Source: a virus
Taxonomy: Duplodnaviria; Heunggongvirae; Uroviricota; Caudoviricetes
IMG/VR virus record: IMGVR_UViG_2551306674_000009
DNA length: 11,334 bases
Reading direction: 5' to 3' (one strand)
Shown here: one piece after another, positions 2,471 to 11,334 of the stretch
Numbering within the stretch: the stretch's first letter is position 1
Layout: every line of letters begins with the position of its first letter
Made by a program: the position numbers and the translations under genes
Notes under the pieces: model-generated
What the model was told of the DNA's origin: nothing
The model's input: only the letters and a program-made list of their open reading frames with translations
Databases searched by the model: none

Positions 2471-2494
2471 TAAAAAAAGCCGGATTTCTCCGGC
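2471..2494 (-). terminator. Rho-independent terminator after the head operon
   Basis: Minus strand: gccggagaaatccggc followed by TTTTTTT, directly after the stop of the 137-aa gene. Confidence 0.7.
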
Positions 2495-2499
2495 CTGTC

Positions 2500-2913
2500 T
2501 CAGATGGTTTTCAGTATGCGATCGATGTCGCCGTCATCGCCCGGGTTTCTGCCATCGTATGCCATGCCAGCTGATACGGCTTGCGGGCTGTGCATGTCCA
2601 TAAAGTTTTCAAAGGCTGCGGTAAGCTCCGGCGCAACCCTCGGACGTTCCTGCTCTATGGTCATGCTAAGGATGCTTTTAGCCGTACCAACATCGATACA
2701 AGGCACGTTTGCCATTGCACGTAACAGCGGCTGATAGTCGCCAGATTCATCAAGCGCCATAATCGCATCAGCGCGCGGCTTGTCCTGCTCTTCCAGTTTG
2801 TTAAGTTGATATATGGCCTCGTAGGTTGATAACCCTCTGTCAGCCATTGCCCGCGCTTCGGCTTTAAATTTACTCGCCAGCGGTAGCGTCATGATGCTTT
2901 CATTCGTTGCCAT
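2500..2913 (-). CDS. Hypothetical protein (137 aa), last gene of the head operon
   Basis: ORF with AGGGGG SD; sits after the gpD-like gene and before a terminator. No confident family assignment. Confidence 0.55.
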   Translation of the reverse strand: MATNESIMTLPLASKFKAEARAMADRGLSTYEAIYQLNKLEEQDKPRADAIMALDESGDYQPLLRAMANVPCIDVGTAKSILSMTIEQERPRVAPELTAAFENFMDMHSPQAVSAGMAYDGRNPGDDGDIDRILKTI

Positions 2914-2925
2914 CGTTCCCCCTGC

Positions 2926-3261
2926 TTATCGCGCCAGCGGCTGAACGGATACGCCAGAACCAGCAAAGGCGGCGCATTTTTTCGCGTCAGTGTCGGCGCT
3001 TTCAGGCCAGTTTACGGCGGCGATATTAAATATCCCCGTCTTGTAACACTGTGCTGATTTCTGCGTCGACGTGTCCACGGGGTACGAGGTCAGATAAACA
3101 GCCTTGCCAGATTCCTGACCATCCCACGCCTTAAACTCGCCATTGTCCGCCAGCATCAGCGGGGTAAATTCCTGAATAACGCCAGCATCAGCGGCAAAAT
3201 GTACCAGCGTCGTGGATACCTGCTGGCTGCCTGCAAATAACTCAATGTATGGAGTGTCCAT
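2926..3261 (-). CDS. Head decoration protein, lambda gpD-like
   Basis: 111 aa; aligns with lambda gpD (TPLMLADNGEFKAWDG vs TPLMLDTSSRKLVAWDG; KKCAAFAGSGVSV vs KRTAFAGTAISIV); GGGGG SD. Confidence 0.85.
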   Translation of the reverse strand: MDTPYIELFAGSQQVSTTLVHFAADAGVIQEFTPLMLADNGEFKAWDGQESGKAVYLTSYPVDTSTQKSAQCYKTGIFNIAAVNWPESADTDAKKCAAFAGSGVSVQPLAR

Positions 3262-3272
3262 AGAATCCCCCG

Positions 3273-4328
3273 TTAAGCAATTTTGACAGTAACAAATTTG
3301 CGAATATCTGCCGGAACCGGCTGCGGTGCGCTGTGCGTCTGCACGTACTCAATCGCCGGATCGCCGTCCTCAATCCAGTTTTTCGGGTAGTACATGTTTT
3401 GCGTTGCCTTCGTTCTTACTGCGTCCTGATCCATAATCGCACCATAGGCCACCAGCCCTTTATTGTTGGTGTTGCCCAGGACCAGCAAATCAGGTTCAAG
3501 GAAATATTTTTCTGTGCCGTCGCTGTCGGCGTATTTGCCGGAATAGACGATAAGGGCAATATCGCCCAGATAGCCTTTAAAGCTCACCACTTCGCCCAGG
3601 TTTTTACAGGCCAGTTCGGCGGCGGATTCTGAACCACGGGAAAGATCGTACAGCTCACGGAATTTTTTAAAGCTGCGTAACGTGCGCCATACCTCAGCGC
3701 CCATAATCATGACGTTTGCGGGGCAACCAGCCTGATCAGCATAAAGCTCGATGTCATAGATTGGATCGTGCATCTCTTTATCCTGCTCGGACCATTTTTT
3801 ACCCTTGGCCTGCTCTATGATGCAGTTTTCCGGTATTTTCCAGTCTATTTCATAGCGTTCTATGCCTTCGCCCTCAATAATGTTTTTTCCGGTCGTTATC
3901 GCATTCACCGCCAGCCATTCCACGCGCGCTTTAATGGCGTTTACCTGGCGGCGCATGTTGCCAGTAATCAGGCGCATACGTCGGTAGGTAGGGTCGTTAA
4001 GCTGTGCCGGATCTTCTCCAGCCATGCGCATGATGGTTTTTGTTGGATCGATTTCGTGCTTTGGCTTCATGTAGCCAGGTTTAATCGTGCTGGTTTCGTA
4101 TCCTTTATCGCGCTGTACCTGGCTGCCAACCATAGGCGAACAAAACGCCGACATGGTGACTTCTTCAATGTCCAGGGTATCCAGCATGATGTTTTGGGTG
4201 CTGAATGTCGCCACGTTCGGGAAAAACAGCGTGATAAACAGCGGACTGAATTTAAATTCCGCAATATCCCCGCGATTCAGGTACGCAAAAAGCTGGTTAG
4301 TGTTAAGTGCCGTTGCTTTGCCTGCCAT
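3273..4328 (-). CDS. Major capsid protein, lambda gpE-like
   Basis: 351 aa; conserved blocks versus lambda gpE (FKFSPLF, PGYMKPKHEIDP, DPTYRRMRLI, YPKNWIEDGDPAIEY...SAP). Confidence 0.9.
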   Translation of the reverse strand: MAGKATALNTNQLFAYLNRGDIAEFKFSPLFITLFFPNVATFSTQNIMLDTLDIEEVTMSAFCSPMVGSQVQRDKGYETSTIKPGYMKPKHEIDPTKTIMRMAGEDPAQLNDPTYRRMRLITGNMRRQVNAIKARVEWLAVNAITTGKNIIEGEGIERYEIDWKIPENCIIEQAKGKKWSEQDKEMHDPIYDIELYADQAGCPANVMIMGAEVWRTLRSFKKFRELYDLSRGSESAAELACKNLGEVVSFKGYLGDIALIVYSGKYADSDGTEKYFLEPDLLVLGNTNNKGLVAYGAIMDQDAVRTKATQNMYYPKNWIEDGDPAIEYVQTHSAPQPVPADIRKFVTVKIA

Positions 4329-4534
4329 TATTCACCCCCATAATTTTTATGCATCCCAAGCGCCGCAAGTAAATAAGAGCGCACAAGTGAACCTATCGAC
4401 GGCTCCGGCGTCATCAGCGGATCCAGTCCAGCCGCTACGCCAGCCTCATAGTTTTTTTTGTGGCGCTGCTTGAGCACCTCCACGATTTCGGGGCTTATGT
4501 ACACCGAAACACCGCCTTTTTTCTCTTCTGCCAT
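4328..4534 (-). CDS. Small protein (68 aa), first gene of the head operon
   Basis: Stop overlaps the capsid start (TAATG); AGAGGA SD; beta-strand/helix pattern (VSVYISPEIVEVLKQ) could be RHH-like. Function unknown. Confidence 0.5.
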   Translation of the reverse strand: MAEEKKGGVSVYISPEIVEVLKQRHKKNYEAGVAAGLDPLMTPEPSIGSLVRSYLLAALGMHKNYGGE

Positions 4535-4567
4535 AGTCAGAAATTCCTCTTTGACTTAAAAAATCAC

Positions 4568-4618
4568 AACTGGATGTTCATCCAGTTATGATTATAATCA
4601 TGATTGCATTTTGCGCAA
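4568..4618 (-). promoter_or_regulatory. Head-operon promoter with SOS-box-like operator
   Basis: Minus strand -35 TTGCGC (4613-4618), 16-bp spacer, -10 TATAAT (4591-4596); palindrome aACTGGATGAACATCCAGTt (4568-4587) just downstream of the -10 has the CTG-N10-CAG LexA-box geometry. Confidence 0.45.
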
Positions 4619-4696
4619 TAAAATTGAGTTGTGTTGCAAATTATGAAATGGTTTACAGCAACAGTAGTCACCATGCTGTTAACCTCGTAAGCAAAA

Positions 4697-4735
4697 GCCC
4701 GATAAGCTTCCTCCTGTACTTATCGGGCTTTTTTT
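4697..4735 (+). terminator. Rho-independent terminator (plus strand; weak on minus)
   Basis: gcccgataag-N12-cttatcgggc followed by TTTTTTT on the plus strand. Confidence 0.6.
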
Positions 4736-4741
4736 GGGCGC

Positions 4742-4763
4742 AAAAAAGCCGGATTGCTCCGGC
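4742..4763 (-). terminator. Rho-independent terminator after the 74-aa gene
   Basis: Minus strand: gccggagcaatccggc followed by TTTTTT; same sequence family as the terminators at 2471-2494 and 5105-5128. Confidence 0.7.
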
Positions 4764-4783
4764 TATGTGTGCTGTGTGCTGGC

Positions 4784-5008
4784 TCAGTCTCTGATCTCTT
4801 TCAGAAATTCTATCAATGCATCTATCTGTTCAGGATTTACCGCCAGCATTTCACCGGATAGAGCACATCTCACAAAACCATGCTGATCCTTTTCAATCAG
4901 TGCGCCCGTCTCCAGGAATGCGCGGTAATCATTGATGCTCATCGTCTCCATGTTGTCAGCATGGTATTTATCACGCTGTTTTAATATCTCATCAAATTTC
5001 ATCGGCAT
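4784..5008 (-). CDS. Hypothetical protein (74 aa), stand-alone moron-like gene
   Basis: AGGAAA SD; terminator upstream (5105-5128) and downstream (4742-4763), so apparently its own transcription unit between the replication and head modules. Confidence 0.55.
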   Translation of the reverse strand: MPMKFDEILKQRDKYHADNMETMSINDYRAFLETGALIEKDQHGFVRCALSGEMLAVNPEQIDALIEFLKEIRD

Positions 5009-5134: not shown

Positions 5135-5407
5135 TTAGCTGTCCTGGTAATTGCGCCATATTTCATCACCAGCACCATCTATACCCATTTCGGCATAAGT
5201 GCGATCGACTGCCTTTTTCAGGTCTCCGAAATTATCCGGCGGCTCCGGTGCCCTCTGTGCCTTCCTTGAACATTCCAGCCGTCGCATCGTGATGTGATGC
5301 CGTTCCTTGTCTGTCTCCACCAGCTGCATGACTTCACCCCATCGCGCCGCCGCCCTCCGGTAAAAGCCTTTCGCCTCCAGTTCCTCCGCTATGCGGTCAT
5401 GTACCAT
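5135..5407 (-). CDS. PerC-family transcriptional regulator-like protein
   Basis: Motif AEELEAKGFYRRAAARWGEVM resembles the PerC/Pch signature as I recall it; start placed at the internal ATG (MVHDRI) with a GAGGGGG SD rather than the longer ORF-track start at 5527. Confidence 0.55.
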   Translation of the reverse strand: MVHDRIAEELEAKGFYRRAAARWGEVMQLVETDKERHHITMRRLECSRKAQRAPEPPDNFGDLKKAVDRTYAEMGIDGAGDEIWRNYQDS

Positions 5408-5417
5408 CGTCACCCCC

Positions 5418-5713
5418 TCAGAACGAAATATCATCACCGTAAGGGTCATCGCCTCCCGCTGGTGGCTGATTACCCTGTGTGCCTGTGGTTTTGCGTCTGT
5501 TCCCGCCAGGACGGGCAGCACGGGCACTGATTACACTGTCTGCGATAACCTGCCAGCCCTGCCGCGTTTCGCCGTTCTGGCCTGTCCGTCCTGTGCCTGG
5601 CTGCATGGCAAAGATACCGCCATACGCGCCAGCGTCATCGGTGTGCCCTTGCTGGTCTGTTTTACCTGCGGGTCGTCCACCAGCCGCCCGTAAGCGGCTA
5701 TCTGTGCTGTCAT
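5418..5713 (-). pseudogene. SSB-like remnant spanning two reading frames
   Basis: Frame from 5713: MTAQIAAYGRLVDDPQVKQTSKGTPMTLARMAVSL (SSB N-terminus-like); a second frame ending at 5418 is Gly/Gln-rich and ends DDPYGDDISF (SSB acidic tail-like). Start overlaps the upstream stop (ATGA) and the second frame ends 10 nt before the next gene. About 98 codons in total, too short for a full OB fold. Confidence 0.35.
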
Positions 5714-5969: not shown

Positions 5970-6165
5970 ACCTCTCACTTTTTCGCCTCACTTTTTCAAG
6001 CGTCTCACTTCGTCGCAGTTGGGATTTTCGGTTTTTCTATGTGTGTGTTTCATAAGTATTTTTTTACCCCTCACTTTTGAGGATGTATACAGGTCGAAAA
6101 GTGAGGGAGAGCGGGCTAATTTTGGCCCTCTTTCTATCCCCCTCGCTTTTGCTCCTCACTTTTAT
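5970..6165. repeat. Putative replication origin: CTCACTTTT iterons flanking an AT-rich stretch
   Basis: Copies at 5974-5982, 5987-5995, 6004-6010 (degenerate), 6070-6078, 6097-6105 (inverted), 6142-6150 (degenerate), 6155-6163; AT-rich 6020-6068; immediately 3' of the rep gene. Confidence 0.65.
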
Positions 6166-7562
6166 AGCGGCGCTACATCATCCCCATCGATACGAATAAC
6201 CCCATCTTTTTCCAGCTTGTACAGCCAGCGCCGGAAGTTTTTCATTTCATACCCCAGCTTTTTCATGTCATCACGTAACAGCGGGATCGTGCACTTGTCG
6301 CCGTTCTGTGTGCGTGAACGGATGCACCCCCATAGCGCGGTATGGTTTTCCGTCTTGTTCCCTGCCTCCTCGATGCGCTCCAGTTCAACAGGAGGGCGCG
6401 GATCATCCACCACCACCAGCGACGTGATTAATTCACCGTCAGCGTCGGTAAAAAGCTCCACCACGCGTAAGTCATATGCGGCTTCTTTGAGTTCCTCCGC
6501 GTCCTTCATTTTGGTGCATGAGATAACCAGCGCTTCGCTTCCTGCGTCCTCCCTGCGTATCCGGTATTCAGCATCCAGCGAAGCACGAAATGCACTGGAA
6601 CCGCGCGCGCCTTTCGTCTCATCCTTGCCGGAATGGTGAACCACCAGCACCGTGGCCCCTGTGCGTCGTTTCAGTTCGTCACAACCACGGATAAACGCCC
6701 CCATATCACGGGAATCATTTTCATCATTCCCACCAAAGCAACGCGCCAGCGTATCCAGAATAATCATGCGTACAGGTTTACCCGTTTCCCGCTCCACCTG
6801 ACGGGCAGCGATAACCATTTCATCAACATCAAGCGGGGCAGCCGGAAAGATGGGGCGGTTTACCAGATACAGATTTTTCACCTGCTCATCGTGCACAACC
6901 TCCCAGGCTTTTACACGACGCGGAACACCTATACCGCCTTCACCAACCACATAGAGAACCGCACCATGTGCAACCCTGCGGCCTCCCCACTGGCGACCAG
7001 TGGCAACATGGCACGCCCACGATCCGGCAAGGAATGATTTATAGGACCCGCTAGCCCCGTATATGCTGCATAGCGATACCGCCGGAATAATCCCCTTAAC
7101 CACGTAATCCAGTTGCGTGTCGTATCCGGTAGATCCAACGCTCATCGGTAGCGTGGTTTTTCGCTGGTGGTTTTTTTCTTCCGCCGGCTCTTTCCCGCGC
7201 ACCCGTTCCAGGTATTCGCGCCAGTTCTCCCGCATATGGCTGTGCATCCCTTCGGGGTAATAATTCGCATCAGTTACACCCGCCGCCGCCAGCTTGTGCG
7301 CAATGGCATTAATATTTGATGGCCTGATGTGGCCTGCCTTGTACAGCCGGACACAATAGCGCCCCTCGTCGATGATTCTCAGGTCTGCCAGTTCATCCAG
7401 TTGATCATCAGCCAGCACAACGGGAGGCACATTATCGCCAGCCAGTCGCCCGTCCTGTTCCTGCCACTGTTTCGCATGTGCCCAGGCATCACTACCCGCA
7501 AAAATAATGACTTCGGTCATCTTGTCGTAAGGCTGTTTTTTTAAGTTCGGTGCGCTTTTCAT
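6162..7562 (-). CDS. Replication initiator/helicase, RepA-like (AAA_25-type RecA-fold ATPase)
   Basis: 466 aa; Walker A GASGSYKS, Walker B-like MIILDTLARCF, VLVVHHSGKD; C-terminal winged-helix-like region; ATGA overlap with the upstream ORF. Confidence 0.8.
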   Translation of the reverse strand: MKSAPNLKKQPYDKMTEVIIFAGSDAWAHAKQWQEQDGRLAGDNVPPVVLADDQLDELADLRIIDEGRYCVRLYKAGHIRPSNINAIAHKLAAAGVTDANYYPEGMHSHMRENWREYLERVRGKEPAEEKNHQRKTTLPMSVGSTGYDTQLDYVVKGIIPAVSLCSIYGASGSYKSFLAGSWACHVATGRQWGGRRVAHGAVLYVVGEGGIGVPRRVKAWEVVHDEQVKNLYLVNRPIFPAAPLDVDEMVIAARQVERETGKPVRMIILDTLARCFGGNDENDSRDMGAFIRGCDELKRRTGATVLVVHHSGKDETKGARGSSAFRASLDAEYRIRREDAGSEALVISCTKMKDAEELKEAAYDLRVVELFTDADGELITSLVVVDDPRPPVELERIEEAGNKTENHTALWGCIRSRTQNGDKCTIPLLRDDMKKLGYEMKNFRRWLYKLEKDGVIRIDGDDVAPL

Positions 7563-9491: not shown

Positions 9492-9686
9492 TTAATTGAC
9501 GCGTTCGCGGTTTTTGACCCAGGCGACAACCTCAGACTTAACCCAGCCAACCGAACGACCGCCAAGACTGATACGGGAGGGAAAGCGGCCTTGTTTTTCC
9601 ATCTCGTAACGAGTTGTGCGGCAAACGCCTGTTAGCTCTCTGCATTCTTTTTCGCGGATTACACGATCTTCATTTATTTCGCGCAT
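9492..9686 (-). CDS. alpA: AlpA-family phage transcriptional regulator / excisionase-like protein
   Basis: 64 aa with AlpA-type motif (CRTTRYEMEKQGRFPSRISLGGRSVGWVKSEVVAWV); adjacent to and co-oriented with the integrase. Confidence 0.75.
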   Translation of the reverse strand: MREINEDRVIREKECRELTGVCRTTRYEMEKQGRFPSRISLGGRSVGWVKSEVVAWVKNRERVN

Positions 9687-10020
9687 AAAAAGCCCTACAT
9701 AAAATTACGTATAGAAATTTTTGTTTCGCTGTGGATATACGGAAAGAGATTACTTCTTAGCTTTTCTTACCTCTTAAATTGAAGGCGTAACCTTGCCAAA
9801 AGCTATGCTCGCCAAGGTTCGCAAGGGTTCGTTGTTGTTCATAAAATCGTTGCACACCAGGAAAGACAATTCAACATTAAAATTCCCTCTACAGTGAGGA
9901 ATAATTAAAAAAACAAATTAAAACAGTCACATAAAAGCATACACATTGAAATAAAGGAAAATTTTAAAACTCAAGTAGACAATCGCTGTTTTCAAATTTT
10001 TTCAATACTTGACACATATA

Positions 10021-10054
10021 AATCGTCGATATTTGCCGATATTCGACGATTTAT
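10021..10054. promoter_or_regulatory. Inverted repeat AAATCGTCGATAT-N6-ATATTCGACGATTT next to a TTGACA hexamer
   Basis: Near-perfect 13-bp arms in the int-alpA intergenic region; candidate operator. Confidence 0.3.
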
Positions 10055-10095
10055 TTTAGAGGGCCATTTTTCGCAAGAAAAACAGCCGTAATTTG

Positions 10096-11334
10096 TCAAG
10101 AATTTTGAGAGTAAATTCGCGGGGTCATAACAACGATTTTTTCATCATTGTTCTGGAGAAGCTCGAGACGCTCAACCCATAGATTAAGAGCGTCACGTTT
10201 TGCATCGAGATAACGGGAGTGATTATAGACTCGTTGCATTCCTGGCAACTGGTGCGCGGTTAGCTGCTCCACTACATGAGGATCCACGCCTAAATCGTTC
10301 AGCATCGTTGTAAACGTGTGCCGGATGTCGTGCAACGTCCAGGGGGCTTGATTAATACGTCTGTGTGCCGTTCTTCCGTACTCTGATACGGATGATTGCC
10401 CTTTCAGTTCTCCGAGCAATAATCCCGTGTGCCTGTTCTGCTCCACCAGCTTCGTTACGAACGGCAAGATCGCTTCCGGTATTGGCCTGAATATTGCTAC
10501 CTTCGTTTTGCTGTGTTCTTTCGGCACGGTCCAGAGCATTTCTTTAAAATCCCATTCCTGGAGCTCAGAGCGTCTTAGCTCAGTGGTACGACATCCGAAG
10601 ACAATCAGGAGGCGAATCAGGGCGCTGTAGTACGGTGGGTAAATTTTTTCATCCAGGGCGCGGAGTAATTCCCCAAGCTCCTTGTTTGTTAGTACGCGCT
10701 CGCTTATTTCTGCTTTTTTCCCAACATCACCTACAACCATATCATCTAGAACGTTGGTAATTGCGTAGCGTCGTTTGCGGCAGTACTTAAGCGCCTGCTT
10801 GCATACCTGTAACAAAAATCCTGCTGATACCGGATTACGCTTAGCAAGCTGATCAAAACAGGTCAGCCAGTGGCGTAGCTCGCATTTTTCCAGCGGCATA
10901 GCACCAATCTGGCTGATTATGTGTGTATTGATCCGGCTCTTCAGAGATTCGTAGTCTGTGCGCTTTTCCTTCGCGTACGATTCAAGCCAGTAAGTGAGCG
11001 CTTCCTTAACCGTAACAGGTGATAACGCTTCCTGTACGGTGTGATTAAGCTCATGGCGTGGATTTTTCCCCTCAGCAAGCCAGGCGCGACACTGCGCCGC
11101 TTTTTCCCTGGCTGCTTTCAGGCTCAAATCAGGATAATTTCCCAGCCTCAGACGTTCAGGGGATACCTTCCTGCCTGTTCCGGCCCTGTAAGTGAAATAC
11201 CAGGTTAACAGGCCATTGGTTGAATGCCTTACGCTAAGGTTGCCACCATCATTAAAAAAGGTGTTTTTTGTGGTTGGTGATCCGCTTAATTTTCGTAAAA
11301 GAGTGTCGCTAAGTCTATGAATTGCCCTGCTCAT
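10096..11334 (-). CDS. int: Tyrosine integrase, P4-type
   Basis: 412 aa; N-terminal arm-binding-like region, C-terminal catalytic residues (HDIRHTF ... VYNHSRY). Start codon is at the last bases of the window, so the true 5' end could lie beyond the edge. Confidence 0.85.
   Translation of the reverse strand: MSRAIHRLSDTLLRKLSGSPTTKNTFFNDGGNLSVRHSTNGLLTWYFTYRAGTGRKVSPERLRLGNYPDLSLKAAREKAAQCRAWLAEGKNPRHELNHTVQEALSPVTVKEALTYWLESYAKEKRTDYESLKSRINTHIISQIGAMPLEKCELRHWLTCFDQLAKRNPVSAGFLLQVCKQALKYCRKRRYAITNVLDDMVVGDVGKKAEISERVLTNKELGELLRALDEKIYPPYYSALIRLLIVFGCRTTELRRSELQEWDFKEMLWTVPKEHSKTKVAIFRPIPEAILPFVTKLVEQNRHTGLLLGELKGQSSVSEYGRTAHRRINQAPWTLHDIRHTFTTMLNDLGVDPHVVEQLTAHQLPGMQRVYNHSRYLDAKRDALNLWVERLELLQNNDEKIVVMTPRIYSQNS

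Follow-up and report, generated by a model that had tools for sequence, protein, structure and literature searches.

Mobile elements of several kinds couple their own expression to DNA damage by means of a host LexA box. Coliphage 186 (tum), the Gifsy antirepressors, CTXphi and the colicin operons are all LexA-controlled in this manner, and the boxes concerned govern induction switches or toxins. The motifs that are bound fall into different classes, with the Gram-positive GAAC-N4-GTTC class being distinct from the CTG-N10-CAG arrangement. Satellites offer a further precedent: operon I of the SaPIs has been placed under LexA control (Ubeda et al. 2007, Mol Microbiol 65:41, as cited in PMC6092414 and PMC6739421). 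This is a capsid-morphogenesis and packaging operon with its own LexA promoter, apart from the helper-sensing master regulator, and it includes the terS and cpm genes needed for packaging.

In EcCICFT073, the prototype of the island type considered here, alpA responds to helper phage and not to SOS, and AlpA activates its own promoter (PMC6092414). The island blocks lambda on infection without SOS through a function, rpp, which corresponds to c1503 and lies outside the capsid unit, while mutants deleted for c1499 or c1500 behaved normally in transfer and interference assays (PMC6092414). LexA appears in the EcCICFT073 papers only in the reference lists (PMC6092414, PMC6739421). In the searchable literature, papers naming both EcCICFT073 and LexA do so only by citing Ubeda et al., and the EcCIMP1 paper does not mention LexA. 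Within the searchable literature, no report of LexA control was found for Gram-negative phage-inducible chromosomal islands (PICIs).

Here we focus on a palindrome at the capsid promoter of one such island, contained in a window of 11,334 nucleotides of viral DNA (the whole stretch that was analysed). As judged from its sequence, the palindrome is a candidate LexA operator that probably places the capsid operon under SOS control. Like the boxes of 186, Gifsy, CTXphi and the colicins, it would tie a mobile element to host DNA damage; unlike them, it precedes the structural capsid unit of a satellite. The likeness to SaPI operon I lies in the layout, a satellite capsid operon with a LexA promoter of its own, and not in the genes, which are not homologous to those of the window: the unit described here encodes capsid, decoration and scaffold proteins and leaves a Nu1-like gene outside. 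The parallel would thus be one of convergence rather than of shared ancestry.

The island and its capsid unit

By gene content and order, the window is an EcCICFT073-type PICI. Integrase, alpA, replication module and capsid module follow one another in an order that agrees with both the PICI definition, under which such islands measure about 10-15 kb and occupy a dedicated att site, and the gene order of CFT073. The genes and terminators used below are as follows.

10096-11334, minus strand: tyrosine-recombinase integrase (name from the homologous gene in an annotated relative)
9492-9686, minus strand: alpA (Pfam)
6162-7562, minus strand: RepA-family helicase (name from the annotated relative)
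Minus strand: Icd-like gene (name from the annotated relative)
5135-5527, minus strand: PerC-family gene (Pfam)
4784-5008, minus strand: 74-aa gene
4747-4764 and 4693-4732, minus strand: two terminator hairpins closing the upstream replication/PerC operon (terminator scan)
4328-4534, minus strand: first gene of the capsid unit, 68 aa (phrog_3255; c1498 in CFT073; profile match and CFT073 comparison)
3273-4328, minus strand: major capsid protein, lambda gpE family (c1499; Pfam PF03864, E 4e-51)
2926-3261, minus strand: head decoration protein, lambda gpD family (c1500; Pfam PF02924, E 2e-17)
2500-2913, minus strand: 137-aa protein resembling the Nu3/scaffold-like end of head maturation proteases (c1501; phrog_1999, phrog_53)
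2477-2496, minus strand: intrinsic terminator closing the four-gene unit (sequence; fits the CFT073 RNA-seq)
1752-2306: Nu1-like gene, 184 aa, beyond the 2496-2477 terminator

With EcCICFT073 the window shares its att locus, which in annotated relatives lies between phoQ and roxA/pepT, and the capsid unit c1498-c1501. The promoter regions are closely similar, and the stretch from the -10 through the palindrome to the T-run is the same bar one base just after the box. The two islands differ in the AlpA allele (59% identical), in the primase that EcCICFT073 has in place of the RepA helicase, and in c1503, which stands where the window has the Nu1-like gene. At the place of the SSB gene of an annotated relative, only a 60-aa ORF is found in the window.

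The initial annotation had placed a head operon under the palindrome. This holds for a unit of four genes, and the unit ends at the terminator after the fourth. Since this terminator follows the 137-aa gene cleanly, the Nu1-like gene would be a separate unit. The 137-aa protein aligns with positions 494-567 of the 583 in phrog_53 (E 1.6e-8), that is, with the C-terminal 75 protease residues only, as would a Nu3-like scaffold without the protease. On the other side, the terminators at 4693-4764 would insulate the capsid promoter from the replication/PerC operon. The one at 4693-4732 is a 14-bp perfect hairpin flanked by T7 on the plus strand and T4 on the minus strand, which suggests termination in both directions. 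The window and Salmonella have AGGAGG in the loop of this hairpin (minus strand), and the O157-type relative does not. The 190-nt gap at 2307-2499 is the place where a cos-like site might be expected.

Two further observations concern the island as a whole. The roxA/pepT-phoQ att site holds two satellites with a common left half (int, alpA, Icd, SSB, PerC and the 74-aa gene). The first, found in O157:H7 strains other than EDL933 and in O55:H7 strains (L042/L001), carries the gpE/gpD capsid unit; the second is CP-933C of EDL933 (L309, NZ_CP008957.1 1680329-1694760), with a full capsid-forming module of HK97-type capsid, protease, portal, connectors, HNH, TerS and TerL. The arrangement suggests that modules were exchanged at the terminators that follow the 74-aa gene. 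At the other end of the window, the best E. coli relatives align from position 546 onward and the first ~545 bases are not common to them, so that a boundary of the island or its flank may lie near position ~545. Positions 1-1100 (e.g., 572-890) contain no convincing ORFs and only weak, sub-threshold Rfam matches, the best being a manA RNA at 712-881 with 20 bits against a gathering score of 55.

A candidate LexA operator over the capsid promoter

The intergenic region ahead of the 68-aa gene is densely occupied by repeats and promoter elements.

4629-4650, minus strand: conserved upstream element CATTTCATAATTTGCAACACAA (conserved in E. coli and Salmonella; third TGCAA motif)
4603-4619, strandless: inverted repeat ATTGC-N7-GCAAT over the -35 (conservation)
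4613-4618, minus strand: -35 TTGCGC (read from the sequence; TTGCAT, TTGCAC or TTGCGA in relatives)
4588-4601, strandless: 14-nt palindrome ATGATTATAATCAT centred on the -10 (sequence)
4591-4596, minus strand: -10 TATAAT (perfect; 16-nt spacer from the -35)
4568-4587, strandless: candidate LexA operator or SOS box (sequence, LexA matrix, comparison of loci)
4562-4593, minus strand: extended inverted repeat, in minus-strand RNA a 14-bp hairpin followed by U6 (T-run 4563-4558; terminator scan, fold)
4563-4558, minus strand: T6 run, preceded by GTGA, 3' of the box
4545-4550, minus strand: Shine-Dalgarno AGAGGA of the first gene (sequence; the block AGTCAAAGAGGAA is conserved in most lineages)

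The box reads AACTGGATGTTCATCCAGTT on the plus strand (4568-4587) and AACTGGATGAACATCCAGTT on the minus strand (4587-4568), the latter exactly as quoted in the initial annotation, and its CTG-N10-CAG core is CTGGATGAACATCCAG (minus strand, 4585-4570). It is a dyad of perfect 9-bp arms around a 2-nt centre, and it sits within a longer inverted repeat with 15-nt arms (4562-4576 and 4579-4593) which contain one mismatch. The minus-strand promoter TTGCGC-N16-TATAAT claimed to lie directly upstream is likewise present in the sequence. Its -35 matches the TTGACA consensus at 3/6 positions, for which reason a consensus promoter scan did not list it. Only 3 nt separate TATAAT from the start of the box, so the predicted transcription start (about 4583-4587) would fall inside the left half of the palindrome, upstream of the first-gene ATG at 4534. 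A box lying over the predicted start site is in the position of a repressor site. In colicin promoters, too, LexA boxes lie just downstream of the -10.

How closely the box resembles a LexA site was measured with a symmetrised matrix built from 30 E. coli LexA sites, most of them taken from compiled site lists; four of these, recA, lexA1, lexA2 and ruvAB, were checked in K-12 and lie exactly at the expected upstream places. The box scores 22.0 bits (21.96) with a heterology index of 5.5. In leave-one-out scoring, proven sites range from 7 to 26 bits, placing the box above most of them and level with the recA operator (21.6 bits). Its fit to the 20-bp consensus TACTG(TA)5CAGTA is also within the range of proven sites, whose heterology index is below about 12-15. 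From the exact matrix tail at the base composition of the window, the probability of a score of at least 21.96 bits is 2.6e-8 per position, or a chance expectation of 2.9e-4 such boxes per window. The second-best site in the window reaches 10.7 bits, and none of the seven other CTG-N10-CAG strings comes anywhere near the score of the box.

Individual E. coli operators show the same features. The ruvAB operator, CGCTGGATATCTATCCAGCA, has the same CTGGAT...ATCCAG half-sites as the box, and the recA operator, TACTGTATGAGCATACAGTA, is the same kind of 20-bp CTG-N10-CAG dyad with an equal score. Overlap with core promoter elements would be a further likeness, the promoter in the window being a predicted one. 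The differences are that the candidate box lies on a mobile satellite and not at a chromosomal repair gene, that its centre, GAAC, is less AT-rich than the consensus, and that it is enclosed in a 32-nt inverted repeat.

The proposed mechanism follows the usual logic of an SOS gene. LexA, the SOS repressor of the host, would have its operator in the box, which spans roughly -1 to +20 relative to a sigma-70 promoter whose -10 is perfect, and the promoter would drive the 68-aa protein, the gpE-like capsid, the gpD-like decoration protein and the Nu3-like scaffold. In an undamaged cell, a LexA dimer bound there would keep the polymerase from forming an open complex or from leaving the promoter. 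Following DNA damage, activated RecA would lead LexA to cleave itself and the capsid unit would be derepressed directly, by the same SOS signal which also induces lambdoid helper prophages. This derepression would be independent of the AlpA-driven programme of excision and replication, with the terminators keeping the two apart. LexA is quite likely to bind the box, and that binding makes the capsid unit SOS-inducible is a reasonably likely further step.

One part of the earlier reading finds no support. The palindrome around the -10 and the TATAAT on the plus strand (4593-4598) are both real, and it had been suggested that a divergent transcript might start there. The plus strand offers neither a usable -35 (CTGGAT is found at the 17-nt position) nor a credible ORF, and positions 4655-4692, which follow downstream, lack conservation when the window is compared with the O157-type relative. 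The outermost pair of the 14-nt palindrome is broken in many relatives (CATGATTATAATCAG). A plus-strand small RNA between the shared -10 and the 4693-4732 hairpin was also considered and rejected, given the missing -35 and the lack of conservation of both 4655-4692 and the hairpin loop in the same comparison; an Rfam search found nothing relevant.

Conservation of the box among related islands

Two anchors lying outside the box, CATTTCATAATTTRCAACACAA and TGCAAYNNTGATTATAATCA, were used to retrieve related promoters and yielded 118 loci with 55 distinct sequences in viral contigs and metagenomes; two scans of genome contigs gave no match. Four Salmonella loci were added via the 68-aa protein (about 55% identical). 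Across this set CTG and CAG are invariant, bar one locus with a 1-nt insertion, whereas 8 of the 14 other box positions vary (P = 0.024 for none of the eight variable columns falling among the six critical ones). The -10 reads TATAAT in all 118 anchored loci, an invariance that is not independent given that a retrieval anchor includes it. Overall, the box is conserved only modestly above its neighbours because the region has diverged only moderately within E. coli.

The substitutions themselves are informative. Those in the inner arms, G9>A and C15>A, each alter one side only and thereby disrupt the dyad, none being compensatory, and C12>A affects the centre, unpaired in the fold. The two variants that were scored, with G9>A or C15>A, reach 23.5 and 23.1 bits compared with 22.0 for the box of the window. 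For the Salmonella box, GACTGGATGAAAATCCAGTA, with further differences at positions 1 and 20, the score is 19.7 bits, and the prototype EcCICFT073 promoter has the identical box, TATAATCATAACTGGATGAACATCCAGTTATGATTTTTT.

More distant lineages were reached through homologues of the capsid protein. In a Lelliottia island (L294, capsid protein 59% identical) a different box is found, CACTGTTTTTTCATACAGTT, with 21.4 bits and a heterology index of 5.9. MAFFT places it in the same columns as the box of the window, from which it differs at 6 of 10 inner positions; the right flank, CAGTT..GATTTT, is common to both, and the Lelliottia box has no hairpin potential. Viral-contig searches for relatives of this lineage returned nothing and E. 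coli genomes gave marginal capsid-gene matches only, so the evidence from this lineage is that of one locus.

Other lineages do not have the box. An E. coli sister lineage (L293, 64% capsid identity) keeps the same promoter frame with TAAAAT as its -10, and its corresponding 20-mer, GACTGACTTTTCGTTATGTT, retains the left half-site and has lost the right, scoring -4.2 bits. The Edwardsiella lineage resembles it, with the same frame, a TAAAAT -10 and no box; both were retrieved independently of the anchor that contains the -10. In five further lineages the upstream region is unrelated and contains no box; the contig L307 has a phage-like context, again without one. With seven related lineages lacking the box in all, LexA control would not be general among these islands. 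Instead, the box appears to be a lineage-specific trait, under selection and accompanied by a consensus -10. The pairing of the consensus -10 with the box, and of TAAAAT with its absence, suggests that the box restrains an otherwise active promoter.

This leaves the LexA-type operator proposed by the initial annotation well supported, by sequence and comparison, in its main part, through a recA-grade score, the invariance of CTG and CAG, the Lelliottia box and the identical box of EcCICFT073; what finds no support is the divergent transcript.

A second input and other readings of the palindrome

Expression data from CFT073 bear on the capsid unit directly. On a shift from 23 to 37 C, RNA-seq shows c1498-c1501 rising about 4-fold with a 5'-to-3' gradient, with log2 fold changes of +2.24 for c1498, +2.05 for c1499, +1.45 for c1500 and +1.17 for c1501 (PMC12890032). 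In the same shift c1503 (+0.33), the upstream SSB gene c1497 (+0.24) and sulA (+0.25) did not change significantly (PMC12890032). As c1498-c1501 move together and c1497 and c1503 do not, these genes form a separate unit running from this intergenic region to before c1503. The rise with sulA unchanged also means that LexA is not the sole control and that repression is not absolute; one or more of the inputs to the capsid unit must be independent of SOS. That temperature controls the capsid operon of a satellite, with neighbouring island genes not significantly changed, is an observation in its own right for EcCICFT073 (PMC12890032). Data from EDL933 were set aside. In ciprofloxacin RNA-seq its CP-933C capsid gene falls 1.8-fold while lexA and sulA rise, and this was rejected as counter-evidence, the module being a different one with a box-less upstream region; the Landstorfer EDL933 data have no bearing on the capsid promoter for the same difference in module.

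A candidate for the second input lies over the -35. The repeat ATTGC-N7-GCAAT is kept in E. coli, in Salmonella and in the box-less E. coli and Edwardsiella lineages, and by this conservation it is likely to be a site for a second regulator, putatively an island-specific one. At one Salmonella locus it reads GTTGC...GCAAC, a two-sided change, and in Edwardsiella the repeat unit is present twice. Further TGCAA motifs occur at 4633-4640, within the upstream element CATTTCATAATTTGCAACACAA, which used as an anchor recovered 36 viral-contig loci. There is probably a second regulator at the capsid promoter, acting via ATTGC-N7-GCAAT and/or by way of temperature-dependent silencing.

These observations also feed a rival reading, namely that LexA binds with little consequence, the promoter being silent or activator-dependent and the box vestigial or a means of fine-tuning. 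With a -35 of only 3/6 matches, the promoter may stay weak even when derepressed unless an activator assists, and the conserved repeat over that -35, the temperature response without SOS, the loss of the box in sister lineages and the absence of a phenotype on deletion of c1499 or c1500 (PMC6092414) would all fit. This rival is nevertheless unlikely: it would not account for the consensus -10 found with the box as opposed to the TAAAAT found without it, which suggests restraint of an active promoter, nor for the strict conservation of CTG and CAG in E. coli, Salmonella and Lelliottia, which points to selection.

The palindrome could alternatively work mainly as RNA, either as a third insulating terminator on read-through from the AlpA operon or, in local transcripts, as an inner 8-bp hairpin at the 5' end that stabilises the mRNA, the likeness to a LexA site being incidental or a second use. 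The terminator scan does find terminator-like geometry, and the read-through hairpin (4593-4562) is stable at -17.7 kcal/mol (z -5.9), and at -13.8 in the O157-type variant, albeit with 4 GC pairs only. Moreover, conservation of the outer arms AATCAK/VTGATT and of the T-run is fairly good across the E. coli/Salmonella family, with two GC-for-UA double changes. However, the 5' arm overlaps the -10, and the full hairpin can therefore form only in RNA read through from upstream; transcripts from the local promoter would contain the inner 8-bp 5' hairpin alone, 4 nt from the U-run. Covariation among 17 distinct variants does not exceed that of shuffled controls (20/500 by pair counting), 9 of the 17 leave pair 10-31 open, and the one-sided, pair-breaking changes of the inner stem argue against an RNA hairpin. 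Lelliottia retains a LexA box and loses the hairpin, while the T-run persists in lineages with neither, as expected of a part of the 5' UTR, and two good terminators already stand upstream. We regard a mainly RNA function as quite improbable. The hairpin may have a secondary insulating role, which leaves the conservation pattern unexplained. Antitermination of the Q type by a lambdoid helper was considered as well and left as speculation, the 5' arm of the hairpin not being transcribed from the local promoter.

The remaining rival accepts the palindrome as a DNA site and assigns it to a regulator of the island or its helper (AlpA, the 68-aa protein, PerC or a helper late-gene factor), with LexA only mimicked. 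AlpA does activate a promoter, its own (PMC6092414), and the capsid promoter has other conserved repeats such as ATTGC-N7-GCAAT. In addition, the int-alpA interval of islands of the CFT073 and EDL933 types contains LexA-like palindromes such as TACTGTTTTTTTATACACTG, which are similar to the Lelliottia box. Against this, the window and CFT073 have the identical box despite AlpA alleles that are 59% identical, unrelated int-alpA regions and alpA promoters and different replication modules, and in the Salmonella islands the replication module is different again; a host factor is thereby favoured over an island factor. The alpA promoter of the window has no LexA-like motif, and members of the 68-aa family occur in lineages that have no palindrome at all. 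Lying over the predicted start site, the box is placed as for a repressor, which fits neither of the activators AlpA and PerC. Substitutions in the box follow the LexA matrix, and no match was found among 50,697 phage records. Such a regulator is very unlikely. An AlpA operator in particular was rejected on account of the box being identical where AlpA and its promoter are not, and autoregulation by the 68-aa protein, which has no Pfam domain, was rejected on the palindrome-less members of its family. FadR, with its site CTGGT-N3-ACCAG, and other E. coli regulators with similar half-sites have the wrong spacing.

The int-alpA palindromes merit a note of their own. Represented by TACTGTTTTTTTATACACTG and TACTGGTTTTTTATACACTA, they score 14-20 bits and lie at 13289-13308 in the CFT073 island (L312) and at 4588-4607 and 4699-4718 in that of EDL933 (L309). 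Depending on the locus, their right half reads CAG (as in AACTGTACAAAAAACCAGTA) or CAC. In the corresponding region of the window (9687-10095) they are absent.

A LexA operator and an RNA element could also coexist. The palindrome would then serve as an operator in DNA and as a third terminator in read-through RNA from the AlpA-driven operon, leaving the capsid, decoration and scaffold unit deliberately uncoupled from helper-phage sensing and answering only to host DNA damage and to a second regulator at ATTGC-N7-GCAAT. We hold this combination to be doubtful. If it were true, c1498-c1501 would act in an SOS-specific role, possibly co-assembly with, or poisoning of, the capsids of co-induced lambdoid prophages.

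Under the preferred reading, that of a LexA operator, DNA damage probably switches on the genes of the capsid unit, much as it does in the satellites of staphylococci. If LexA does gate the unit directly, Gram-negative PICIs would have a second, host-derived input beside the sensing of helpers through AlpA, and this would constitute a convergent parallel to SaPI operon I. The genes c1498-c1501 are conserved in hundreds of E. coli genomes, and the box names the condition under which they would be examined: DNA damage, or a lexA(Def) background.
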